NCBI GenBank assembly: GCA_963820525.1
Contig: CAWGAA010000001.1
Span: 3,072,001 to 3,136,000 of the forward strand
Direction: 5' to 3'
DNA: 64,000 nt
Origin: an uncultured Spirochaetota bacterium
GTDB lineage: Bacteria > Spirochaetota > Spirochaetia > SZUA-6 > Fen-1364
Shown here: positions 10,616 through 25,476 of the stretch, one piece after another
Layout of the letters: each line of letters starts with the position of its first letter
Numbering within the stretch: the stretch's first letter is position 1
Program-made: the position numbers and the translations under genes
The notes under the pieces: generated by a model
The model's database searches: none
Seen by the model: the letters and a program-made list of their open reading frames with translations, nothing else
Told to the model about the DNA's origin: nothing

Positions 10616-11224
10616 TTATTGTTGGGGCTTGTAGATGAAGGGTCCATCACTATCTTTATATATTTTGGTAAATTCAGGACCAATAGGAATGAGATATTTC
10701 TTGCTTTTCCTATACTCTGTCTTGGACGCAGTTTCTCTACAAACGAGTTGGGCAATTCTTGTTCCAGGATAAAGTGCGATAGGAACATTTGAGATATTCG
10801 CGAGTTCAAGAGTAATGCATCCCTTGAAACCTGGTTCAATAGTGACGGCTGTTGCAATTACTAGACCTATGCGCGCTATCGAAGATCTCCCTTCGATGGA
10901 AGCTTCGATATTTGCTGGGAGCCCTATATATTCAAACGTTGAGCCAAGCACCATTGTTTGCGGGTGGAGGTAGAACGGCGTTCCAAAAGGAACGACGACC
11001 TCTGTTTGTATAGACTTGATCTTTTCTTTGTCATGCATAAGAGATTTCGGATCAATTGCATTAATGTTTTCAATTCGAAATATAATGAATTGATTGGAGA
11101 GACGAAGATCAATTCCTATTTGATTGATCTGGAGATCACGGTCAAGCAATGGAGTTACTACGAGTTTACTCACATCGGACCGGTTAAGATATTCAATCAA
11201 TTCATTCTTAGACAAGGTGCTCAT
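10616..11224 (-). CDS. dcd: dCTP deaminase (trimeric dUTPase fold)
   Basis: IDLRL, EGRSSIARIGL, IEPGFKGCITLEL, RIAQL. Confidence 0.88.
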   Translation of the reverse strand: MSTLSKNELIEYLNRSDVSKLVVTPLLDRDLQINQIGIDLRLSNQFIIFRIENINAIDPKSLMHDKEKIKSIQTEVVVPFGTPFYLHPQTMVLGSTFEYIGLPANIEASIEGRSSIARIGLVIATAVTIEPGFKGCITLELANISNVPIALYPGTRIAQLVCRETASKTEYRKSKKYLIPIGPEFTKIYKDSDGPFIYKPQQ

Positions 11225-12530
11225 CAGCTGGACCTTTCGAATTCTGATACTCCGAGTCTACATAACTTGAAAAGAGAGACTTAAGAAGTAGACGCATTAG
11301 TATTTGATAATTCGTGATAAACTCATCACCTTTCGATATTTGATCGATCTTTTGGTAATATATCCATCCGGCAAGAATAATATCCGCCATTCCCACAGGT
11401 TTGCCGTGCAATTCATTAGCCGGAATGATATCGTCAAGCTTCAGGTACAATTCGTCGATTTGATTAGGATTGAGATAGTACTTTGGGACTTGGCTCTGAG
11501 CATAGGATATAATATCGGGAAGAGATGCCTTAAAAAGCTTGATCTCCTCTGCAATATCAGTCAGAGCTTTTTGATCCTCATTATCAGAAAGGTACTGCTC
11601 GATGTCCTGCAGATATCTTTTATAGTACTTTGAGCATTCGGACTTAGAGGTAGCTACGGGGGCCATCCTTCCGTCAATCTTTAAAATCTCTTCATATAGT
11701 ACTCTTATACGATACTTGATTGGCGGATAATAATTAGTAAATCTGCTGGGTAATTCTATTTTGCCTTCAAATATGGATATAAAATCTAAAGCAAATAGCA
11801 TCGAAGGGCCAAAGATAAGATATCCACAAATGTCTGAAAGAATCTCACGATACATACCTTCAAGTATCTTCATGCCTTCTATGGTCTTTTCATATGGACG
11901 GAATAGATCAGCGGGAAACTTCTTTCGGTAGTAGGTGCTCAGATGAACGTTCTGATCTAAAATCAGTTTCTTTGCTTCAGGTGTTTCTTTCCATCTATTA
12001 TGGTAGAAATGACCCAATTCATGACCGATCACCGAATAGAGAAGAACATTGGTCTTCTCGAGATAAGGAAACGAAAAGACATGAATTTTCTGAGTGGAAA
12101 ATAGGCTGCTAATCTCTTGTGCTCGAGTCGGGAATATGGTAAGTAGCACATTGCTTAAGGGTCTGATAAGATCGTCTGTCATAACGGAATAGTTAAAATG
12201 CCATTGCGGCCTGAATAAGAGTAGATAGTCGGTTCCAAATTGCTCCTTAAGCATGCGATCAAGATATGGAATAACACTCCATGGAATATTTGCAGTTGAT
12301 GCCCGTTCTATATAGCGAACACTAGGTATGAATCTGGTCGAAATGAATATGAACAAAACCTTGTATGTTGATTCCTCAATCTCACCAAAGTGATCAACAA
12401 AATACTGGATGAACTTCTTGTAGCTGTCTATTGCAAGCACACAGGATTGGTTATAAAAATCAACGGTCTTGATTTCATCGAGATAGTTTCTAGCGCTAAT
12501 GAGCTTTCTATATAGCTTATTCTCAATCAT
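11208..12530 (-). CDS. Hypothetical 440-aa protein with zincin-like HEXXH motif
   Basis: VIGHELGHFYH plus downstream EILSD...FGP; overlaps the dcd start by 17 bp. Confidence 0.75.
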   Translation of the reverse strand: MIENKLYRKLISARNYLDEIKTVDFYNQSCVLAIDSYKKFIQYFVDHFGEIEESTYKVLFIFISTRFIPSVRYIERASTANIPWSVIPYLDRMLKEQFGTDYLLLFRPQWHFNYSVMTDDLIRPLSNVLLTIFPTRAQEISSLFSTQKIHVFSFPYLEKTNVLLYSVIGHELGHFYHNRWKETPEAKKLILDQNVHLSTYYRKKFPADLFRPYEKTIEGMKILEGMYREILSDICGYLIFGPSMLFALDFISIFEGKIELPSRFTNYYPPIKYRIRVLYEEILKIDGRMAPVATSKSECSKYYKRYLQDIEQYLSDNEDQKALTDIAEEIKLFKASLPDIISYAQSQVPKYYLNPNQIDELYLKLDDIIPANELHGKPVGMADIILAGWIYYQKIDQISKGDEFITNYQILMRLLLKSLFSSYVDSEYQNSKGPADEHLV

Positions 12531-13079: not shown

Positions 13080-13115
13080 ATTGTATTAAACTGCATAGGA
13101 CTCTGGCGCAATGGC

Positions 13116-13249
13116 CTATAGCGTCCTGCAAATATGTGACGCGGCCCTGAGGCCAACAAGGCCGAAGGGCCGTGTGGCGGAGCGGCGCGCTGCAGCGCCG
13201 CGGAACCCAAGGCGCCTACTGGCGCCGATGCACATATTTGCTGTTATGT
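13116..13249 (-). repeat. attC-like site A (one core degenerate, GTT to GCT)
   Basis: Arms GCAAATATGTG/CACATATTTGC, branched GC-rich interior closely similar to sites B and C; cyclase-like gene stop TAA lies in the inverse core. Confidence 0.8.
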
Positions 13250-14149: not shown

Positions 14150-14177
14150 CCATAGACCTCCTAGATCGCAGGGTTCC

Positions 14178-14307
14178 ACATAACGTCCCGCAAGTATACG
14201 ACTTGGCCCGAGGCCAACATGGCCGAGGGCCATGTGGTGGAGCGGCGCGCTGCAGCGCCGCGGAGCCCAAGCCGCCCGCCAGGGCGGCGAAGCACATATT
14301 TGCTGTT
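14178..14307 (-). repeat. attC-like site B (interrupted at its GTT by IS1182)
   Basis: Plus strand ACATAAC-GTCCC-GCAAGTATACG...CACATATTTGC-T-GTT; core continues as GTTAGGT at 16025. Confidence 0.85.
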
Positions 14308-16024
14308 GATTCTGTAGGAAAAGCCACGCGCCTACTTTACGCTATTTGATATCCAGCGCACAATAGCTTCATGGCGCGGTATAAGGATCATAATCAGGAT
14401 CAAGGCGAGTTTATTGTCGTCCAGTTCAGCGAGCAACTGCTTATGGATACCTTCGAATACACGCTCAATCACCTGATCAACGAGAAAATAGATTTATCAG
14501 CGCTCGATTCAAAGTATAAGAACGATCTTACCGGTGCTCCTGCATATGATCCTCGGGTTTTACTGAAAATCATTCTTTTCGCCTACTCCAGAGGCATATT
14601 TTCATCACGACGGATCATGGAGCTTTGCGAGACGAATATCATAGCCAAAGCGCTTTCGGCAAACTCCATCCCGCATTTCACGGTCATAGCGGATTTCATC
14701 TCATCGATGAAGGATGAAATCGCCGGCATATTTCTGAAAATCCTCATGGTGTGCCAGGAAATGGAGCTCATCGGCGGAAAGCTGTTTGCGATTGACGGAT
14801 GCAAGCTGCCGTCCAACGCGTCCAAAGAATCGAGCGGCACCTTCAGGGATCTCAAAAGGAGAAAAGAAAAACTTGAAAGAACGGTAAAACTGCTCATTCA
14901 AAAGCATACTGTAACCGACAGAGCTGAAACCGCATCAGGATCCGAAGTTTCGCCAAAGAAGAAAGCCATTGATAGGATCGACTCAAAGATCAAGCACATC
15001 GAGGACTTCCTTAAAACAGAAACGCCGAAACAGGGCAACCGTGGCAAGGAAATACAGTCGAATATCACGGATAACGATAGCGCAAAGATCAAGACTTCTC
15101 ACGGAATGATCCAGGGGTATAACGGGATCGCCCTCGCGGATGAACAAAACCAGGTCATTATAGCCACCGAAGCCTATGGGAAAGGGCAAGAACATGGGAC
15201 ATTCAAGCCCGTTCTTGAAATGGCGGAAGAGAATCTGAAAGCCATCACCGACAAGGAAGAACCTCTTTCAGGAAAGACCGTACTTGCGGACACGAATTAC
15301 TTCTGTGAAGAAAACCTAAAAACAGCCGCGGATAAGAAAATCGAGGCGATCATCCCGGACTACAACTTTCGAAAACGAGACGAGCGCTTCGTGGACAGGA
15401 AAGATCATTCGGGTATCGAGTATAAGTTTGGATTTCAAAATTTCACATATGATGAGAAAACAAACACGTATACATGTCCCAACGGGAAAACACTGAAACA
15501 TAGAGGACATGCAATACTTCATGGATCTTCGGGGCATCGTTATCAATCCAAAGCGTCCGACTTTAAGGGGTGTCGGTTTACAAATAAATGCTTTCATCGC
15601 AAAAAGAATAGCAGCGGCAAGCGGACACTCTTTATAGATGACAAGGATAATTCCACCAATTATTCGGCACAAATGATCCAGAAGATCGACCGGCCGGAGG
15701 TCAGGGATTTATATTCAAGACGGATGGCAATCATCGAACCAGTGTTTGCGAATATCACATTCCATAAGAGACTGAACAGATTCACTCTGAGAACGAAAGC
15801 GAAAGTGAATATTCAATGGCTGTTATATTGCATGGTTCATAATATAGGAAAGATTTCAAAGGCGATGTCTGGAGCGAATGCATGATGGAAAAGAAAATGC
15901 ACACCGATTGTCCGATGATCTATATCGATAGAGTAGTTTTCGCTTTCTGATCATTCATAAATCGTTTTTGAATCGAGTTTGAAGGAGAACTGTTGTCTTT
16001 TGGGCTATATTTTCCTACAGACTC
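14308..16024 (+). mobile_element. IS1182-family insertion sequence
   Basis: 15-bp IRs GATTCTGTAGGAAAA / TTTTCCTACAGACTC (1 mismatch), flanked by GTT on both sides. Confidence 0.88.
14371..15885 (+). CDS. IS1182-family transposase
   Basis: GAPAYDPRVLLKIILFAY..GIFSSR, AIDGCKL..NAS, ITDNDS, LADTNY, YTCPNGK, IEPVFANI. Confidence 0.92.
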   Translation: MARYKDHNQDQGEFIVVQFSEQLLMDTFEYTLNHLINEKIDLSALDSKYKNDLTGAPAYDPRVLLKIILFAYSRGIFSSRRIMELCETNIIAKALSANSIPHFTVIADFISSMKDEIAGIFLKILMVCQEMELIGGKLFAIDGCKLPSNASKESSGTFRDLKRRKEKLERTVKLLIQKHTVTDRAETASGSEVSPKKKAIDRIDSKIKHIEDFLKTETPKQGNRGKEIQSNITDNDSAKIKTSHGMIQGYNGIALADEQNQVIIATEAYGKGQEHGTFKPVLEMAEENLKAITDKEEPLSGKTVLADTNYFCEENLKTAADKKIEAIIPDYNFRKRDERFVDRKDHSGIEYKFGFQNFTYDEKTNTYTCPNGKTLKHRGHAILHGSSGHRYQSKASDFKGCRFTNKCFHRKKNSSGKRTLFIDDKDNSTNYSAQMIQKIDRPEVRDLYSRRMAIIEPVFANITFHKRLNRFTLRTKAKVNIQWLLYCMVHNIGKISKAMSGANA

Positions 16025-16049
16025 GTTAGGTGAAGGGCAGAACAGCAAA

Positions 16050-16547
16050 TTACCGATATGATTTTGCCATTTTATCCCTTTTCTGCAAAAATTCAGGTTC
16101 CAAATGTTTGGCTAATATTTTAACTATTAAAGATATAGCCTTATCTATATCTTTATAAATATCTGACTCCCAAATGCGAATGACATTCCAGCCGCTATGT
16201 ATTAATGATTTTGTGTTCTTAATATCTCTATCAATATTATTTTCGATCTTAGCAATCCAATATTTACTATTATAGCCCTTTATCAATTTCTTTCTTCTAA
16301 GATGCCAGTCTTTTCCATGCCAAAAATCTCCATCTACAAATACTACACATTTTTCTTTAGTAAATACTATATCAGGTATACCTGGCATAGTCCTCACATT
16401 TTTCCTATAGCGTAAACCGATTTTCCATAAATAATGACGAAGTAGTACTTCTGGCTTAGTATCCTTTTTCTTACTCGCTCCGCGTGCTTTAGCTGAGGCA
16501 TTTTCTGACTTTGGATATAATCCTTTAAATGATGCATTTTTATGCAT
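16050..16547 (-). CDS. vsr: Very short patch repair endonuclease
   Basis: DTKPEVLLR, PGIPDIVF, FVDGDFWHG, GWNVIRIWE. Confidence 0.92.
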   Translation of the reverse strand: MHKNASFKGLYPKSENASAKARGASKKKDTKPEVLLRHYLWKIGLRYRKNVRTMPGIPDIVFTKEKCVVFVDGDFWHGKDWHLRRKKLIKGYNSKYWIAKIENNIDRDIKNTKSLIHSGWNVIRIWESDIYKDIDKAISLIVKILAKHLEPEFLQKRDKMAKSYR

Positions 16548-16550
16548 GAT

Positions 16551-17540
16551 TTATCCAAATATCGCCTTATATAATCCCCCTAATTCTACAATCTCCATTT
16601 TTGATAATGGTAGAATATCAGTTAATTCTGACTTAAATCTAACATCGCTGACTTCTGCAGGAATGTTAGACGTAATTTGGGGAATTTCGATTGCATCATA
16701 TATACTAATAGTATTTAGAGCATTTGAGGAATCAAATCTTATGCGTATAGCATCTCTCCAATCTCTGCCTAAGCTCATCGTGATTATTTGTGAAATTCTT
16801 TCTTTTAATCTTTCTGATATATCCATACGCGAGGTTATTTTTTCCCAAAGATCTATGATGGAAAGGCCATTTGCTTTTTCATCTATCAGGAAAGAAACAA
16901 TCAGTATTCTATTGTTTTTCTTAGGAATTAATTGATCAAGATTGAAATTATGAATACGTATAGGACCTTTAGTCGATTTAACTTCTAATTGTTGTTCTCC
17001 ATTGACAAAGTCAAATAATTCATTCGGATCAGCGTGCCAAGCAGTTGCAGCTAAGTTAATATCGTGCGCATTAGCAATGAGAAATAGTTCACACCAAATG
17101 CCCTCAATAGAGCTTAATGGAGGAGCCTCCATTGATCTAAACAACTCAATTAGATTAGATATTATTAATAAAATGTCTATGTCTTTAGATTCCAAAGGCA
17201 TCAGTGAAATAATCCCAGATAACGCCCGCAAAAAGTATTCTCTTAATATCTGATCTGCTTTTGAGCATTTAATCATCGTGAGCCTTTCTGAAGCGATTGT
17301 TCCATCATTATTAATAATTTGGCACATACAACTGGGACGAAATGAAAAATATTTGAATTCTCTTGGAGGAATAGAAAGCTCGTTTGAATGGCTTTTAGTT
17401 GAGAATAAGAGAGCGGGATTTCCATAAGAATCTTTTGCAATATGAATATTGGGATGCCCAGGCAATACAAGTGCTGAATAGAATTCTCCAGAATCTTTAA
17501 TTTCTTTTAGATTAAGAAATAGTGAAAACAAGTCAATCAT
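16551..17540 (-). CDS. PD-(D/E)XK motif protein (DUF4420-like)
   Basis: GIWCELFLI, W...LFDF...LEVKST; follows the Z1 gene. Confidence 0.8.
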   Translation of the reverse strand: MIDLFSLFLNLKEIKDSGEFYSALVLPGHPNIHIAKDSYGNPALLFSTKSHSNELSIPPREFKYFSFRPSCMCQIINNDGTIASERLTMIKCSKADQILREYFLRALSGIISLMPLESKDIDILLIISNLIELFRSMEAPPLSSIEGIWCELFLIANAHDINLAATAWHADPNELFDFVNGEQQLEVKSTKGPIRIHNFNLDQLIPKKNNRILIVSFLIDEKANGLSIIDLWEKITSRMDISERLKERISQIITMSLGRDWRDAIRIRFDSSNALNTISIYDAIEIPQITSNIPAEVSDVRFKSELTDILPLSKMEIVELGGLYKAIFG

Positions 17541-19692
17541 TATTGTTCTCAGTATGTATAAGAATATCATCTTGCTGAGTAAGCCTTATAGCTACTGCGG
17601 GTACATTTTCATAATAATGATTATCATCTTCGATACGAAAAAAATGTATCTGAATCGTTGGCAAATCTTTCTGGAAAAATGCGCGATCGCCAGGATAAGA
17701 ATCAGCTCCAGAGCTTGAACGGCCTTGAAAAAGCTGCGGGATTATTCCTTTTGAAAGACGCCGCGTTCGCTTTAGGCCATAATGCATGAAATAGACTAAA
17801 CATTTCAAATTATTATCGAGATCAAGCATTGATTTTAGATTGCAATTAACATAGCAAAGGCCTATTGCATCTTCTTCATCGAGATATGATAGAGGTGCCA
17901 GTACATTCTCGAAAACTTCATTTAGAAAAGTGAAAGCCAATTTGTGTTGTGGAAACCTAGCATTTTCTTTGAATTGCATGTTTTCAAGAAGCTTTATAAG
18001 CTTAGCGTTGTGAAGACCTTCGCTGGGCGAATTATGCGGAGCTCGCGGTGCAAACCAATTATCCCCCAAATGTGGCCTTAGATAAGGTGTTGATAATATA
18101 TTATATCTTGTGGGTGCTAAGCTATGATCAAGATAAAAAAGTCTTCGCCATTCTTTTAAAGGGCGACCCCGATGAGCTTCTAACCGATTTCGCATATCTT
18201 GTTCATGCCTAACATAAGCTATATATGCGTACTTTACATCTGGGTGTAAATAAACTCTGCAAAAACCAAAATGTCCGCTATGATATCCAAAAAATCGCGC
18301 ACGTTGTTGTATCGTATCTGCTGTCCAACCACCTGGACCTCTAGGCATATAAGTTACAGTTAAACCTTTTACAGTATATCCACGACCTAGTTTCTCGCCA
18401 CCTACAAGAATATGTGAATATGAGTTTTGCCATTGAACTTCACGCCCTTCTATAGAATTAACTAAGGTTACAGTAGTTTGATTTATAGCTACAGGTAATT
18501 TGCCCTCAATTTGATTGAATGGCGGCAATGAAGAACAGGTACGACTTAAATCATCATAAGCGGTTCTAAAATCAGCCATTAATTCAATACGATCTGGTTC
18601 ATTCATAGCTTGTAATATTCTATGCCAGTTGTGCTTTATGGCTTCTATCCAATCATAATAATGACGATGTATAGCTATTTTTTTTGAAGCATGAACTAGC
18701 ATTGATCGATGCTCTTCAGAGTGAGAAATACGTCCAGCTGCTACGCCAATAAAATAAACTTGTAGCGCATGTAATAAAGACTCTGGAGGCTCTTCTGGCA
18801 TATGCTCATCATCAAAAAGATATGCTTGTGCAATTGTTTCAACATATATGCTGTTTTCAGCAAAAAACAGATCCCCACCTATGTATCCTTCACCAGGTGA
18901 AACAAGCTCTGCAAAATCTGCTGATAATGAATCTATTCTAGTAATTAGCAATGGAGCTTGCGGAGTTGCAGTGTATTGCAAGAAGGTATGAGATGGGAGG
19001 GCTTTTCTAAGCCCATCAATACTGACATAAGTTGCACTAGCATTTGGCTCATTCGGGCGTGTGTTCAAACTGGCCTGATCCGCTTCATCATCGAATATAA
19101 TAGAAGGTATTCCACCCAGATCGATTGAGCTTAGCAACTGTGTCAAATTATTTAAATGCCTGTAATTCTTCATTACAGTAATGAAAAGTGTTCGTCGGTC
19201 TTCATCAACATATTGATTACTTCGCCATTCTTCAATTAATGCTACGATAGCAGGTAATTCATTATCTTTTCGTGGGTTTTTTAACATATGCCACGTCCAA
19301 TCAGGCGATGCTGAACGCAAATGAGATTCCATTCTTTCACTATTTTGTGTTACGAGATTAGTTGTTATTCCAGCGATTAGAATAATAATTCTATAGCCAT
19401 TATCTTTTGCTAAAGCAGAAATAGCAGTCATCGATGCAGTTTTGCCACTTTGAACATACCCACATACAAGTCCAATCCCGGGATTCTCAGATGAAGTCGG
19501 TGGATTGCATTTAGATAGAATACGATGTGCCTCATCAATTAAGCGGTTTGCATCTTCCCCTGAGGGTAGAATCCCTTGAGTTATGAAATAATTCCTAAGT
19601 GAGTTTGTGACATTCCCAATTATTGGAACCCAATTACCATTCGAATCATGAATATTTATGATTTTAATAATTTCATTAGAGTTAATAGCCAT
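17533..19692 (-). CDS. Z1 domain-containing SF2 helicase-like/endonuclease subunit
   Basis: GYVQSGKT, DDEADQAS, YTATPQA, SMLVH, LGRGYT, DTIQQRARFFGY. Confidence 0.9.
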   Translation of the reverse strand: MAINSNEIIKIINIHDSNGNWVPIIGNVTNSLRNYFITQGILPSGEDANRLIDEAHRILSKCNPPTSSENPGIGLVCGYVQSGKTASMTAISALAKDNGYRIIILIAGITTNLVTQNSERMESHLRSASPDWTWHMLKNPRKDNELPAIVALIEEWRSNQYVDEDRRTLFITVMKNYRHLNNLTQLLSSIDLGGIPSIIFDDEADQASLNTRPNEPNASATYVSIDGLRKALPSHTFLQYTATPQAPLLITRIDSLSADFAELVSPGEGYIGGDLFFAENSIYVETIAQAYLFDDEHMPEEPPESLLHALQVYFIGVAAGRISHSEEHRSMLVHASKKIAIHRHYYDWIEAIKHNWHRILQAMNEPDRIELMADFRTAYDDLSRTCSSLPPFNQIEGKLPVAINQTTVTLVNSIEGREVQWQNSYSHILVGGEKLGRGYTVKGLTVTYMPRGPGGWTADTIQQRARFFGYHSGHFGFCRVYLHPDVKYAYIAYVRHEQDMRNRLEAHRGRPLKEWRRLFYLDHSLAPTRYNILSTPYLRPHLGDNWFAPRAPHNSPSEGLHNAKLIKLLENMQFKENARFPQHKLAFTFLNEVFENVLAPLSYLDEEDAIGLCYVNCNLKSMLDLDNNLKCLVYFMHYGLKRTRRLSKGIIPQLFQGRSSSGADSYPGDRAFFQKDLPTIQIHFFRIEDDNHYYENVPAVAIRLTQQDDILIHTENNND

Positions 19693-21221
19693 TATTTTCC
19701 GCTTTTTTTAATAGGCCCAGATAAAGACCTTAGAATCTGATTTAAGTTTCTACGTATCGTTCCTGCTTGCCTAACGCCTGCTTCTCTTGCTGTAATTTCT
19801 GCGATTGCCAGGCCTGCAGCTAGCCGAGTAAATGGTATTATTTCATCTCCATCTGGCGAAACGAAACGGTCCATGAAGGGATGTGCTAGATTCATACGAA
19901 TATGAACTTCAATTTCTGATTTCTGCTTGTTATTTTGAGATAGCTCATACCATTCTTCATGCGATATATCATCAATAAGCTCAATTGTTATAGACCAATG
20001 CTTAAGTGCGTGATTTACTTCAATTTTAACAGATGTACTCTTAGCTTTTTCGTCTTTAGATTTTTCAAGCCTTGTAGCTAGTGGCTCATCTTTAGGCTTA
20101 TTATTTAATTGTTCTTCTATTATCGGAGATAGGTGCTGTGCAATTATATGAGTTGCATCTTCGGGTGCTTCGCTAATAACTTCCTGTATCATGTTGCTAT
20201 GAGCCCGATAATTTGCTGCTTGATCAAGTAATGGAATTGGTTTTGTATTTAACTCCGATTTTAGCCATTTTAATATATCATCTTCCCAATCTTCCCACTG
20301 AATACCATCTTTAGTATGACTAACAGAAAATCCCTGAACTTCAAGCTCTCCAATAAGTCGCTGATAAACAAATTTATTAGCTTTTCCAAAAATATATTCT
20401 GGACGGTAAGCTTCGCCACAACTGCCCTGTATTAATCTCCTTCGCCTAAATAATGCAAAGCCAGCATTTGTAACACTTCCACGTGCAAGAATTCCTGCCC
20501 ATCCTTTAACGCTATGATCATTATTAAAAACCATATTAAAATTCTTTTGCCAAATTATTGGTTTATTGTCAGGAGTTGAATGATACGGTGCTTCAAGGAA
20601 AACAGGTGGTTCATAAATCAATGGAGTCCCATCTACTTTTATCTCTAATAAATTATCTCTGATAAACAAGCGATAAATGCTACCAAGATGATCCTTTATT
20701 TTGTCTAGCGTCCGTCCTTTTGGTTTAACCAGCAAATTACTAAGAGTTATTACAGTAAAGTGCTTCTGTTCATTAACTCGATTCTCTGTTGGCTGCAATT
20801 TTTCGATATTATTCTTAACTATCATTGGTATGTCAAATACTATTGACCTCTCTACATTTTCACCAATCGCTTTTGTTCTTACTATCCAAGTTCTCGCGAA
20901 CCAGCTAGCGGCTGCTTTCATGCCAAGACCAAATTCAGACAATCCAGAAGTATCTGGCGGGATTGCAGCTGGAAGAAAGGCTCTTGCATAATCACTTATG
21001 GCTATACCAGCTGCATTATCGCGAATCTCAATATAATCATCATGCAATTCTATCTCAACTAATAGCTTATAATACTTACCATCCAATTTTCTTAGGGCAG
21101 TAATATTTGAACAGCCACTTTGTAGGGAATTATCGACAAATTCTGCTAGCGCAAACCACGGCTTGTAATTCAGTCTTGCAAATGAAGCATACATAGCTAC
21201 TTCAGGTCTGATTATTATCAA
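19692..21221 (-). CDS. GHKL (MORC/MutL/HSP90-like) ATPase
   Basis: ALAEFVDNS, IRDNAAGI, EFGLGMKAA Bergerat-fold motifs. Confidence 0.88.
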   Translation of the reverse strand: MIIIRPEVAMYASFARLNYKPWFALAEFVDNSLQSGCSNITALRKLDGKYYKLLVEIELHDDYIEIRDNAAGIAISDYARAFLPAAIPPDTSGLSEFGLGMKAAASWFARTWIVRTKAIGENVERSIVFDIPMIVKNNIEKLQPTENRVNEQKHFTVITLSNLLVKPKGRTLDKIKDHLGSIYRLFIRDNLLEIKVDGTPLIYEPPVFLEAPYHSTPDNKPIIWQKNFNMVFNNDHSVKGWAGILARGSVTNAGFALFRRRRLIQGSCGEAYRPEYIFGKANKFVYQRLIGELEVQGFSVSHTKDGIQWEDWEDDILKWLKSELNTKPIPLLDQAANYRAHSNMIQEVISEAPEDATHIIAQHLSPIIEEQLNNKPKDEPLATRLEKSKDEKAKSTSVKIEVNHALKHWSITIELIDDISHEEWYELSQNNKQKSEIEVHIRMNLAHPFMDRFVSPDGDEIIPFTRLAAGLAIAEITAREAGVRQAGTIRRNLNQILRSLSGPIKKSGK

Positions 21222-22501
21222 ATCATATTCTCCTTAGCATGGCTTTTAGAAGGATATAAATTTTGCACAGTACTCCTTGGGCCGCGTCCGACACCAGGAT
21301 GATCAGAGTGATTTCCTTTAAGATAAAGGTATTTCTTTATGACCGGATAGCAACGAGAAGGAGGTGGACAATCCTCTCTATGAGGCGGCATTAATCGTAA
21401 AGTTAGTGGGATGCAATTTTCATTTAATAATTGCCTTCTTATTTCGAGGCCAAATAATTCTCCAATTAAGCAAGGCACTGCATTTCCTACTTGACGATGT
21501 GCTGAAGACCTATTTCCATAAATTTCATATCCATCAGGAAAAGTTTGTAAACGTGAGATTTCTTTGATACTTAGCAAGCGATTTCGCCAATGAAATGGAC
21601 CAGAAGCTGGTCCAGGACTAGCTTGTATGGTCCAAGACGGATACCTTTTTGATAATTTGAGTAGAAATGACCAGTACTTTGTCCTCCAGCCAAAAAGGGG
21701 GGTCCCATTACCACGATGAGTGTGCCATAGATAATTTTTTCCCTCAGGGATGCTTTTAATCAAATCTTTCCATTTTCCCCTAATTTGAAGGTCAGCAGAC
21801 CATTCATTTGTATCAAGATCACCAATTGCATCCCAGGAATTCCTATAAGGTTCAAGGCCGTCAGCATATCCACATATGGGAGAAGGCATATCGAGCATTT
21901 TTCCATTAATATCAGCGACAATAAAAATCCGTTTCCGTATTTGTGGAACACCATAATCTGCAGAGTTTATATAAAAGTCTTGTAGCTTATATTCAGTTCC
22001 TTTCTTTCTATTTATTCTTTCAATACCATCTTTAATTAATTCCAATCCAGATCTCTGCCTTCCATAAGCATTCCAAGATATCCCTTTTACGTTCTCGAGT
22101 AATATTACTCTTGGTAACGCTACCTCAACCACATTAAGAAAAGCTTGAAGTGTTTTTGTTCTCGGGTCACGTAAGCCAGCAGAGGTGCCATTAAACCAAT
22201 AGGTCGACTTTGAGAAAGGCTGACAAGGTGGTCCGCAAGAAAGTAGTGCGGTTTCTCCAGGTTGCAGGCCAACTTGTGATAATAGCTCAGAAGGATGAAT
22301 TCTAAAAATATCACCTGGATTGGTTAGAGTCCAAGAAGGATTATTCTTTGTTAATGTTTTTCTTGAGTCATCGTCAGCTTCGATACAGCCCTTAATACAA
22401 AATCCGGCATATTCTAGACCTAAATCCAAACCACCTGCTCCAGTGAATAATGATAAAACTAAATGTTCTGGTTTTTTTTTCTGCTTTAATCGTTTATTCA
22501 T
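21218..22501 (-). CDS. dcm: DNA cytosine-5 methyltransferase
   Basis: SLFTGAGG, GPPCQPFS, ENV, YGVPQ.RKR, RLQTFPD, QVGNAVP. Confidence 0.93.
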   Translation of the reverse strand: MNKRLKQKKKPEHLVLSLFTGAGGLDLGLEYAGFCIKGCIEADDDSRKTLTKNNPSWTLTNPGDIFRIHPSELLSQVGLQPGETALLSCGPPCQPFSKSTYWFNGTSAGLRDPRTKTLQAFLNVVEVALPRVILLENVKGISWNAYGRQRSGLELIKDGIERINRKKGTEYKLQDFYINSADYGVPQIRKRIFIVADINGKMLDMPSPICGYADGLEPYRNSWDAIGDLDTNEWSADLQIRGKWKDLIKSIPEGKNYLWHTHRGNGTPLFGWRTKYWSFLLKLSKRYPSWTIQASPGPASGPFHWRNRLLSIKEISRLQTFPDGYEIYGNRSSAHRQVGNAVPCLIGELFGLEIRRQLLNENCIPLTLRLMPPHREDCPPPSRCYPVIKKYLYLKGNHSDHPGVGRGPRSTVQNLYPSKSHAKENMI

Positions 22502-22896
22502 AATAAAAATGAATGGCTTCAATGGGTTTTTCAACGACCGCGGCCATGTACATATTGGATAAGACTTCAGCTATTGATATAGATTTAACGCTTGAATATT
22601 CCTTTAATGTCACCATATTGTCTTCAATAATCACCTTGATCACGGCATCGGTTTCAGTTGATTTGCGTTTACAGTTACCAGGATCGTGATCTATTCCCTC
22701 CTCTAGTTATGTAATATATCAGATCTTGACTATCATTGTACATTGTAAATTTTGGTCAATAGAAATCGGGACAATCACAAATCTCTACTGAGTTTATTAC
22801 TTAGCCTTGCAAGGATGTTTTTCATTATTGGGTAGAGCAAGAAACTGTCGTTGGTGACTGTTACATATGATACACACAAGTAGTGTTCTGCCTTTC

Positions 22897-23007
22897 ACCT
22901 AACGTTTCGAGCGTACACGACGTGGCCCGAGGCTAACAAGGCCGAGGGCCATGTGGCGGAGCCCGAGCCGCCCGCCATGGCGGCGAAGCGTGTACGCTCC
23001 GTTAGCT
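22897..23007 (-). repeat. attC-like site C
   Basis: Plus strand ACCTAAC-GTTTC-GAGCGTACACG...CGTGTACGCTC-C-GTTAGCT; perfect 11-bp arms; interior shared with A and B. Confidence 0.88.
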
Positions 23008-23015
23008 GAAGTGGA

Positions 23016-23536
23016 CTACGATCTTTTAAATCTTGTGGCATAAACTCTGCGTGGAAAATCGCCTTCTGCATACTCGGTTTTACTCGCATCTTTTACAATA
23101 TCTTCATTTGCGTACGCCTCTATTACTTCACCTATAAAAAGATTTTTATCTCCTGTTTCTATTTCTTGTTTAACTTTGCATTCAATATGAGCTACACACT
23201 CGGCAATAATAGGAGCTCTTACTTTTCGCGCTGGTTGTTGAGTTAATCCCGTTTCTCTAAATTTATCAAATTGATATCCTGAGTGCAAACCGCAATAATA
23301 TATTTTTGCTTTTAGCTGAGCGGGAGGAATATTTACAATAAATTCTTTATTACTTTTGATTAACTCATATGAAAAGGATTTGTTCCCTATGGCACAGGCT
23401 ATAAGTGGGGTCCCTTTGAGACAGGCATACAAAAGCTAACTGCGATGATATTTGATTTTATTTTTATCTCCCCGCAGGTTATTAAGAAATGTCTCATCGG
23501 CCACATAAATTCTAGATATTCGACATCAATATTCAT
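23016..23536 (-). pseudogene. Flavin reductase family protein cassette (one frameshift near 23410-23420)
   Basis: MNIDVEYLEFMWPMRHFLITCG...CMPVSK, then shifted frame PLIACAIG...EFIVNIP...HIECKV...GDKNLFIGEV. Confidence 0.8.
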
Positions 23537-23562: not shown

Positions 23563-23757
23563 AGCTAACGTAAAGGGTTTACGACATGCCCCGTCCCGAA
23601 GGGCTGGCACAGGGGTTGCCCCGCAAAACATAGAAAAGAGTGTACCACACATCTTAGAGGACCGTAAGAAGATTTGATCTGCAAGCCCTGTGCCAGAGGG
23701 GCATGTGGCGAAGCCCGGAGCGACCGGAGGGAGCGGAGCGTAAACCCTATGTTGAAC
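23563..23757 (-). repeat. attC-like site D (long, different sub-type)
   Basis: Plus strand AGCTAAC-GTAAA-GGGTTTACG...CGTAAACCC-TAT-GTTGAAC; internal stems ACATGCCCC/GGGGCATGT and TGGCACAGGG/CCCTGTGCCA. Confidence 0.8.
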
Positions 23758-23787
23758 GAAGTCGCTCCGCCCGCGCTATGGGTTTTA

Positions 23788-24990
23788 TTACGCGCTGTTC
23801 CAATAACTTTCAGCGGTATTTTCCGGCGGGAGCTCAATAATCTGAATATTCGCGCTCTTGCAGCGGGGACATCTTTTTTCGATAGTCTCAGGCGCTTCCA
23901 AGAAAAAATCATACGATCGCTGTTGAGATTCTAGATCGATGCATAACAAACGACGGATGTATTTCAGATTCTCATTTTTGTGCCCGTTGCTCAAGAGGCC
24001 GTAAAATCGTATACGCTTGAATCCTTCCGGCAGCACATGCAGGAGAAATCTTCTCATGAACTCGGAGGCGCCAAGTGTCATTACCTTTTTCCGGTTTCTA
24101 TTCCTGTAGTCCTTCCATATAAAGCTCACGTTTCCGCCGGTGAAATTCAATATCCGTTTGTTGCTGATCGCTACCCGATGCGTATAGTGCCCTATATATT
24201 TCAGTACGCGTAACGGATTGGAAAACGGCTTTTTGGCGTAGACGATCCATTTTTTCGCATAACATTCATCCAACACCTTTGCAAACCCGGCTGTCTCTGC
24301 TGTCTTGCGTAACTTACCAAAGAAACTCAACTCTTTTGCTGCATATGCCTGTTTCAAATAATGCAGGTATTTACCTCTGAACAATCGATTGAGAATGTGT
24401 ATCGAGATAAAGAAGTTGTTCCTGCTTTCAATCCATGCGGATTTATCCCGGCTCAATCCCCCTCCGGTAACAATGCAGTGCAGATGTGGATGGTCAAGTA
24501 GGTTTTGGCTCCAGGTGTGGAGAATGGCGATAAATCCGATCTTCGCGCCGAGATTCTTCGGGTTTCCCGCGGCTTCTTGAAGAGTCTCGTTTGCGGCGTG
24601 AAAGAGAATGTCGTAGAGCACTCTTTTATTCTGGAGAATAAGGGAATTCAATACCGCCGGGACGGTGAAGACGATATGGAAATATTTTATGGGCAGAAGC
24701 TCTTGTGTCCGCTCGTAAACCCATTGCGCCTGCTTGCTCGCCTGGCATTTGGGGCAATGCCGGTTCCTGCATGAATTATAGGATATCTGTTCATACCCGC
24801 ATTCATGGCAAACAAGTTTATGGCCGCCCAATTTCGGACCGCGGCAGTTTATGATTGCGTTTACGACTTTCCAATGATCATAACTGATGCCTTTCAGTAA
24901 CTGGGTGCTTTGTCTGAAAACATCGGCGACTTCGAATTTGGGTCTTGGAAAAACCGTTGCCGCTTCAATATAGCCCATGCTGTATAACAA
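23788..24990 (-). CDS. IS91-family rolling-circle (HUH/Y2) transposase
   Basis: EVADVFR, SCRNRHCPKCQ zinc domain, HPHLH HUH motif, YIGHY tyrosine pair, RRFLLHVLP.GF.RIR.YG; exact start uncertain (24990 or 24978). Confidence 0.92.
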   Translation of the reverse strand: MLYSMGYIEAATVFPRPKFEVADVFRQSTQLLKGISYDHWKVVNAIINCRGPKLGGHKLVCHECGYEQISYNSCRNRHCPKCQASKQAQWVYERTQELLPIKYFHIVFTVPAVLNSLILQNKRVLYDILFHAANETLQEAAGNPKNLGAKIGFIAILHTWSQNLLDHPHLHCIVTGGGLSRDKSAWIESRNNFFISIHILNRLFRGKYLHYLKQAYAAKELSFFGKLRKTAETAGFAKVLDECYAKKWIVYAKKPFSNPLRVLKYIGHYTHRVAISNKRILNFTGGNVSFIWKDYRNRNRKKVMTLGASEFMRRFLLHVLPEGFKRIRFYGLLSNGHKNENLKYIRRLLCIDLESQQRSYDFFLEAPETIEKRCPRCKSANIQIIELPPENTAESYWNSA

Positions 24991-25053
24991 GCGGGAAACA
25001 TCTGTCTTGCTTTCATGGCGGCGAATGAAGACTAAGGCTTGATGAAAGCCATC

Positions 25054-25135
25054 GCGGAGCGATTTTGTTCAACTCGTTGAGTGTGAATTTCACCTTTCCA
25101 TTTCATTATAATCCTTCTTCCCCAATCATCAAGCA
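25054..25135 (-). promoter_or_regulatory. Head of array: sigma70-like promoter and terminal (attI-like) core site
   Basis: TTGATG (25132-25127)-16 bp-TATAAT (25110-25105) pointing into the array; palindrome GTGAAATTCAC 25083-25093; GTTGAAC core at 25073 with no linker upstream. Confidence 0.55.
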
Positions 25136-25476
25136 CATCTCGGTCGTATAGATAGGCATGGGAGTGCGCATTTCATGAACTATTATCTCGAGGCGTTCCT
25201 TCGGGAATCGAGGAATCGAGGGTATGTCACGGAGAAAACCGCCGCTAAAATCAAGAGCCCGCTTTGAGAATATCGTGAAATTCACGATACCAGCGCCATG
25301 CAGTCATTACGGGGAATTTCACCTTTGAGTATTTGAAGGACTTCAAAAATCTCGCCCGATGCGATTACGATCATCTTGGAGGACGGACGCGAGGGTGCGC
25401 GGCGCAGGCTTCCGGCAGACGCGGTTCAAGGAATAGACGGCCTCTTGTGACTTCAATGAATGAAGCCCTCCGCGAG

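Follow-up and report, generated by a model that had tools for sequence, protein, structure and literature searches.

The IS91 family of insertion sequences (IS91, IS801 and IS1294, with the ISCR relatives) is the closest known system to the element described here. Its members insert without target duplication, with GTTC or CTTG as target tetranucleotides, and their two ends, oriIS and terIS, differ from each other and carry no terminal inverted repeats. We analysed a 64,000-nucleotide stretch of DNA from an uncultured Spirochaetota bacterium (the window, G000:C1:3072001-3136000, where G000 is the source genome and C1, like C3 below, one of its contigs), in which the gene for an IS91-family HUH/Y2 transposase forms part of a repeated mobile unit at the first position of an integron-like cassette array. 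The initial annotation of this stretch had proposed that the transposase might be a functional part of the array. We regard the element as a parasite or guest of the array, not as a component, and we read it, at about even chances of being right, as a recombinase-less, cassette-mimicking IS91 element that exploits the recombination sites of the array and is moved by a two-step mechanism.

Like the members of the IS91 family, the unit encodes a transposase with both family domains, shows no target duplication, and has an end motif and an inverted copy of it, as do its two-gene relatives. Unlike two-gene IS91 elements, it carries no recombinase gene in any of its six copies (6/6) and measures 1508 bp, compared with 2.5-2.6 kb for the relatives found in tandem. 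It also differs in that its right-end hairpin measures 192 nucleotides (nt) and in that it is inserted, in the cassette orientation, at G/TT of attI-like or attC sites (here and below the slash within a sequence marks the crossover or junction).

The unit also resembles the cassettes of sedentary chromosomal integrons (IntI, attI, attC), in that it consists of an open reading frame (ORF) and an R/L-boxed hairpin, has G/TT ends, occupies the first position next to attI-like and promoter-like sites, and occurs in several copies within arrays. It departs from integron cassettes in that its ends come from an insertion sequence, its hairpin lies outside the attC family of the array, the neighbouring recombinase lacks the IntI-specific insertions, and the cargo is a DNA-mobility enzyme under selection. 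Two further groups target attC sites, namely the IS1111-attC group, with a DEDD transposase, and the group IIC-attC introns, with a reverse transcriptase. As with these, the unit is specialised on integron recombination sites, in one position and one orientation, whereas its enzyme is a different one, and it imitates a whole cassette while those elements interrupt attC.

IS91-family transposases, integron cassettes, the IS91 subgroup with an upstream integrase gene and, from the passages cited next, the kinship of its recombinase with IntI are already known. In the relevant passages of Smyshlyaev et al. (bioRxiv 10.1101/542381), an "integron-like" subgroup of simple tyrosine recombinases is described; there, IntI has its closest homologues among the recombinases from IS91 transposons, which are devoid of the IntI insertion. 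The same passages (10.1101/542381; published as PMC8138268) contain no cassette-like ends, no attC arrays with a short recombinase and no transposase-only derivative. Likewise, searches of the full-text literature, with subscription journals and the TnPedia and ISfinder pages outside it, yielded no IS91 transposase as a cassette, no attC-mimicking IS91 ends and no recombinase-less IS91 cassette in a short-IntI-like array.

Extent, copies and ends of the mobile unit

The unit is made up of the following features.

23566..25073, minus strand: repeated mobile unit of 1508 bp, with left-end motif, transposase gene, inverted motif copy and attC-like hairpin.
25051..25073, minus strand: left-end motif GTTGAAC-AAA-ATCGC-TCC-GCGAT (core and small hairpin), near-identical to the left end of the closest relative.
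23788..24990, minus strand: IS91-family HUH/Y2 transposase gene, an ORF of 400 amino acids (aa), recognised from Pfam, NCBIfam, the HxH and Yx3Y motifs and the ratio of non-synonymous to synonymous substitution rates (dN/dS).
23751..23770, plus strand: inverted copy of the end motif (second arm), which on the minus strand gives GTTCAAC, the R''-like box that opens the hairpin.
23566..23757, minus strand: attC-like imperfect hairpin of 192 nt at the right end of the unit, R''(GTTCAAC)-2 nt-L''...L'-4 nt-G/TT, from DNA folds.

The transposase gene probably starts at the ATG at 24978, giving a protein of 396 aa, the same length as its nearest homologues. The product matches the Pfam domains Zn_Tnp_IS91 (PF14319, E 2.7e-30) and Y2_Tnp (PF04986, E 5.8e-60) and scores 420 bits against the NCBIfam model NF033538 transpos_IS91, whose cut-off is 125. 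When the protein is aligned with 25 homologues (48-94% identity), the residues H167, H169 and H171 of the HxH motif and Y265 and Y269 of the Yx3Y motif do not vary, which agrees with the initial annotation of an intact IS91-family HUH/Y2 transposase at the first-cassette position. The nearest homologues from a protein search are P0001 (94% identity) and P0002-P0007 (71-76%), and the protein family is very large, with at least 8000 matches at E<=1e-20. A single-protein search of genome contigs returned 24 pattern matches and no true relative, a scan of metagenome contigs found three distant loci only (45-49% identity), and a class-wide search of 401 genomes gave no match above 49% identity outside the source genome.

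In a whole-genome BLAST of the source genome, the repeated unit comprises the gene together with the 192-nt structured stretch downstream of it, so that its limits are 23566-25073, and not the interval 23751..25073 flagged initially. Six copies are present, five full and one truncated, with these same ends and with flanks that are unrelated beyond them. Over 1508 bp, the window copy and the one at C3:826726-828233 agree at every position (100% identity); both stand at array heads, and despite this identity the two flanks on the recombinase side have visibly diverged. Three copies internal to the C3 array (835545, 837490 and 858216) do not differ among themselves and match the window copy at 95.8% identity. 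In the sixth (C1:2097889-2099255), ~140 nt are missing from the start and a stop codon is present. In four public metagenome runs, belonging to three studies, contigs break at 23567/23570 and at 25073, with other flanks beyond these points. From these comparisons the unit appears to have moved recently. Separately, an isolated 42-nt piece within the C3 array (C3:843856-843897) matches the central part of the unit's hairpin at 98% identity and may be what remains of a copy since lost.

On the minus strand, each of the copies begins with ...G/TTGAAC and ends with ...CCCTTTACG/TT followed by A or G, the right end thus being ...ACG/TT. Read as a cassette, the unit has its crossovers inside the GTT of each junction (from about 25072 down to 23569). 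The junctions of the five full copies have only the core GTT in common, and neither a target duplication nor a loss of target bases is observed. The immediate outer flanks (window minus strand) are ...GA, ...CC and ...TC on the side upstream of the transposase and TTAG, TTAT, TTAA and TTGG on the other, and the IS91 target tetranucleotides GTTC or CTTG do not abut the unit ends in the flanks of the copies in the source genome. All insertions run in the same direction as the cassette genes, and the sites used are either the attI-like site beside the short recombinase described below (two of the six copies, adjoining the recombinase gene) or an attC inside the array. Each of the three internal C3 copies has a whole array attC immediately upstream, and once the unit is taken out the site reads as an ordinary attC-cassette junction. 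A 13-linker profile of the array's attC sites finds 17 sites in the source genome, confined to three arrays (the window; C3:831-891 kb; C1:2.07-2.09 Mb), and the unit heads all three (3/3). Identical copies at the attI-like sites of two separate arrays are the outcome expected of recombinase-mediated cassette insertion.

The two ends of the unit differ, one being a short motif and the other a long hairpin, yet an inverted repeat (23751-23770 and 25054-25073) brackets the gene, with 18 of its 20 nt (90%) complementary, and the same is seen in the relatives. The first 20 nt of the left-end motif form one of its arms. The arms hold the boxes GTTGAAC and GTTCAAC, as had been noted at the outset, and the R'' box GTTCAAC is complementary to the start of the unit, G plus TTGAAC. 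The hairpin starts 31 nt past the transposase stop codon and folds as DNA with -39 to -45 kcal/mol in linear form and -55 to -65 kcal/mol in circular form, in which the 20-nt arms add about 20 pairs to the stem. The folds show spacers of 2 nt versus 4 nt and a fully paired L box. The polarity of the array was assigned on three grounds other than bulge positions, namely how the genes are oriented, where the recombinase lies and how the unit is composed. Geometrically the unit is a gene cassette, an ORF followed by an R''/L''/L'/R'-boxed hairpin and bounded at G/TT. Membership of this hairpin in the linker family of the array was considered and dropped, the score against the 13-linker profile being only 6.6 bits.

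The two lineages of the unit differ at 63 positions, with 30 synonymous and 17 non-synonymous changes in the gene, corresponding to a dS of 0.128, a dN of 0.018 and a dN/dS of 0.14. These values indicate that the transposase is under purifying selection and is not a dead passenger, and to this extent the earlier view that it is more than a chance passenger was right. Because both lineages share the derived, recombinase-less form, the transposase appears to have been selected in that form.

Two-gene relatives and the short recombinase

The best 80 matches of a genome-wide transposase scan correspond to 78 related loci of 42-55% identity. In 76 of these 78 loci a tyrosine recombinase homologue is encoded on the strand of the transposase gene and under 400 nt upstream of it, and in none of them (0/78) is it divergent; the two others are L035, which has none and appears disrupted upstream, and a locus cut by a contig end. 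Three more two-gene copies occur in the related genomes G015, G003 and G006. A recombinase gene directly upstream on the same strand is found for none of the six unit copies in the source genome (0/6). The two-gene form, which we take to be that of the IS91 members listed in ISfinder with an upstream "phage integrase" gene, bears out the statement in the initial annotation that some members of the family carry an adjacent tyrosine recombinase. The relatives are ordinary two-gene insertion sequences, and the loci of the orthologous arrays in genomes G001 and G004 are free of the transposase. Given its gene content and its ends, the unit is a compact derivative of this two-gene IS91 subgroup whose recombinase gene has been lost.

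The ends of the relatives are built in the same way. A core-GAA-stem-loop motif, for example TTGAAC GAA GCCGC NNN GCGGC, stands 110-215 nt upstream of the recombinase gene, and an inverted copy, with a hairpin after it, lies 240-310 nt beyond the end of the transposase gene. Between these end regions, 19 of 44 testable loci have an inverted repeat of at least 14/16, compared with 2 of 44 when the downstream region is shuffled. In the closest relative (L027/L128, 55% identity) the left end reads GTTGTACGAAATCGCTTCGCGAT, compared with GTTGAACAAAATCGCTCCGCGAT at 25073-25051 of the window. In the tandem copies of L042 (2633-bp unit) and L053 (2506-bp unit), the right end joins the left end with a 4-nt overlap. 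Since the relatives share the motif and its inverted copy, the 20-bp ends that had been described as matched cassette ends are the insertion sequence's own terminal motif: the repeat is real, and it is a trait of the family and not a sign of packaging as a cassette.

Two features lie on the other side of the left end.

25074..25174, no strand: attI-like junction with a divergent promoter region, separating the unit from the recombinase remnant, homologous to the head of the C3 array and diverged from it.
25175..25267, plus strand: IntI-like tyrosine recombinase of the array (265 aa when intact), here reduced to a remnant of 30 codons in which its N-terminal 17 aa are fused to its C-terminal 13 aa.

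The remnant is divergent from the unit and 101 bp away, and an intact 265-aa paralogue occupies the same place beside the C3 head copy (G000:C3:825826-826623). This recombinase carries the catalytic signature R, K, HxxR, H/Y. It falls below the curated cut-offs of both TIGR02249 (IntI; 191 versus 265 bits) and NF040815 (XerA/integron integrase; 201.6 versus 220), leaves positions 178-238 of the TIGR02249 model unmatched, and in an alignment is without both insertions present in the two IntI of the source genome. These two IntI score above the TIGR02249 cut-off (C1:682092-683030 and C1:1954228-1955157), and both head arrays of another attC family, of 116 nt. As the short recombinase and IntI head different arrays, the source genome has two linker families, each with its own kind of recombinase. 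Behind the first IntI, more than 170 BLAST matches to the 116-nt attC family extend over ~140 kb (C1:683764-824374), which is a very large sedentary integron; behind the second is a short array of the same family (C1:1956606-1963775).

In a maximum-likelihood tree of 66 recombinases, from which three fragments shorter than 230 aa were left out, the 55 IS91-linked sequences fall on one side of a branch with 100/99 support, and the array recombinases, the two IntI and two Xer fall on the other. The recombinase whose remnant adjoins the window copy does not belong to the IS91-linked clade and is therefore the array's own and not the lost partner of the element. The initial annotation had seen no partner recombinase here; the remnant went unnoticed, even if it is not of the IS91-linked kind. 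A C-terminal SPL motif is common to the IS91-linked, array and IntI recombinases in the alignment, and the Xer proteins are without it. Our tree and alignment thus place the first three kinds close together, in agreement with the cited passages of Smyshlyaev et al.

Orthologues of the short recombinase, with 69-71% identity, are encoded in the related genomes G001 and G004 (L115:6144-6941 and L116:6041-6838), where they sit to the right of linker arrays of the window type, with seven linkers in L116 and two in L115. The IS91 transposase is absent from both loci. Genome G004, which is 99% complete, has no transposase match at E<=1e-30, and G001 has only a partial match of 43% on another contig. 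Because these loci carry no transposase, the array and its recombinase exist without it, and the array does not need it. The whole looks like a short-integrase integron-like system that has been kept in two related genomes. The idea that the neighbouring recombinase is the lost partner of the element, flipped by an inversion, was also considered and is rejected on the strength of the tree and of the transposase-free arrays in the related genomes.

A possible two-step movement and its alternatives

The ends of this IS91 subgroup are built like an integron cassette, with a left core (here G/TTGAAC) and a short hairpin at one end and, at the other, an inverted copy that opens the long right-terminal hairpin; joined in a circle, they would form one attC-like stem-loop. 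In a first step, the transposase would copy the element out as single-stranded circular DNA. In a second step, an integron-type tyrosine recombinase acting in trans would insert the folded circle at G/TT, in the manner of a cassette. Candidates for this recombinase are the array's 265-aa enzyme, intact on C3, or either of the canonical IntI. The single-stranded circle and the assignment of each step to an enzyme are what we infer here, whereas the anatomy, the copy number, the insertion points, the family relationship, the loss of the partner gene and the selection on the transposase are shown.

Several observations weigh against this reading. The recombinase adjoining the window copy is deleted, and recognition of the unit's hairpin by the array recombinase has to be assumed: against the 13-linker profile the hairpin scores 6.6 bits (the best of 200 shuffles reaches 2.1), and at E<=0.01 the unit hairpins are not among the 17 sites which that profile finds in the genome. 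The closest canonical relatives, L128 and L129, are not inserted at G/TT, their right end stopping at ...CCTAAT, so the cassette-like crossover is not universal in the family, and the left-end flanks of 20 relatives contain no consistent hairpin (fold z from -4.5 to +1.2); attC targeting by canonical relatives was thus not confirmed, either in these 20 flanks or at L128 and L129. No circle junction or joints of the unit were present in the assembled contigs of the four public runs. Finally, if the recombinase gene was lost in each lineage independently, part of the purifying selection may date from before that loss.

A broader possibility, which we advance tentatively and think more probably wrong than right, is that the two-gene IS91 subgroup and integrons share one mechanism, with a circle made by an HUH enzyme, attC-like joined ends and IntI-like insertion at G/TT. 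The element described here would then be a natural split of that mechanism, keeping the circle-making enzyme and borrowing the short integrase of the array. If true, this would link the way in which attC sites and cassettes originated to rolling-circle transposons. The element bears on how integron cassettes and their attC sites come about and on why an IS91 subgroup has an IntI-like recombinase. IS91 ends that fold like attC and lie at the cassette insertion point, in an element that has lost its own recombinase and whose transposase is selected, make the link between these two single-strand-DNA systems directly testable. Automated annotation would label the gene "IS91 family transposase", would take its surroundings for a cluster of cassettes without a recombinase, and would miss both the true ends and the short integrase.

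Turning to alternatives, the unit could be a passive passenger cassette, formed when a transposase gene was picked up together with an attC and shuffled since by integron-type recombinases only, the transposase itself being idle. The single ORF and single hairpin between G/TT crossovers are consistent with this, as are the first position beside the attI-like site at two array heads, where insertion by an integrase is expected, and the absence from the unit of the partner gene that relatives usually have and of the long right-end region of canonical elements. Nevertheless, the dN/dS of 0.14 and the conserved catalytic residues do not fit an idle enzyme, the ends are the left-end motif of the insertion sequence family and its inverted copy instead of generic cassette ends, and the hairpin lies outside the attC family of the array, all of which makes the explanation unlikely in our view.

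We consider equally improbable that the unit is an autonomous, attC-homing insertion sequence, whose HUH transposase alone excises and inserts it by means of folded hairpins and a GTT target, no tyrosine recombinase taking part. Selection on the transposase, the six copies with two recently expanded lineages, and the insertion of IS91-family elements without target duplication would all suit such an element. Two of the six copies, however, are at the attI-like site, which is not an attC hairpin, the classical IS91 tetranucleotides (GTTC or CTTG) do not flank the unit, and the retention of the recombinase gene by 76 of the 78 relatives suggests that the transposase alone is insufficient.

The proposal of the initial annotation, that the transposase is a working part of the array, either generating the single-stranded DNA in which linkers fold or mobilising the array through rolling-circle read-through, is very improbable: the unit does head 3/3 arrays of this linker type in the source genome and its transposase is under selection, but the orthologous recombinase and array loci in G001 and G004 have no transposase, no copy shares flanks past the unit ends (the five full copies have none in common, and the window and C3 heads are identical inside and diverged outside), and the relatives are ordinary two-gene insertion sequences.

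Surroundings of the unit

The array headed by the unit forms a low-GC island at ~8.1-26 kb of the window, within a genome of 63% GC. Its linkers are GC-rich, measure ~111-139 nt and fold like attC sites, and its genes, all on the minus strand, comprise a flavin reductase, a five-gene block, a dCTP-deaminase-like gene and two DDE insertion sequences. The second cassette, next to the unit, consists of the following.

23016..23432, minus strand: flavin-reductase-like gene (Pfam Flavin_Reduct, E 1.6e-22), with a 91% paralogue in the C3 array.
22897..23007, minus strand: the second cassette's attC ("linker"), which belongs to the linker family of the array, from the linker profile and its fold.

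On the other side of the unit, a promoter-like TTGATG-16 nt-TATAAT (minus strand, 25132-25105) has 10 of 12 matches and points into the unit, in keeping with the array promoter that had been placed there, though as a consensus match only. The region holds four promoter-like sites, compared with 2.3 +/- 1.5 in shuffles.

Between two linkers, the 6.5 kb at 16050-22534 hold five co-oriented genes, for a Vsr endonuclease, a DUF4420 protein (PD-(D/E)XK), a Z1-domain helicase-like protein, an HATPase_c_3 protein and a C5 cytosine methylase, and constitute a restriction/defence module in the form of an unusually large multi-gene cassette. At 10616-12530, the dCTP-deaminase-like gene (202 aa) overlaps a gene of 440 aa that has no Pfam match, and the two may make up a defence pair, carried in the array, that acts by nucleotide depletion.

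A DDE insertion sequence (DDE_Tnp_1_6/DUF772) is present three times, at 14311-16025 of the window (ORF 14371-15885), G000:C3:860865-862641 and C3:873596-875343. All three are inserted in the R' box of a linker of the array and share their junctions, ...GCTGTTGAT/TCTGTAGG... and ...CCTACAGACTC/GTTA..., and the sequence seems to be a second element specialised on the linker sites of the array. Many cassettes of the window array type start, on the minus strand past G/TTA, with a conserved TAGGCCATTGCGCC-like motif, which is found at 13100-13130 and 14160-14180 of the window and in the left flanks of the unit copies, and also in L115 and L116.

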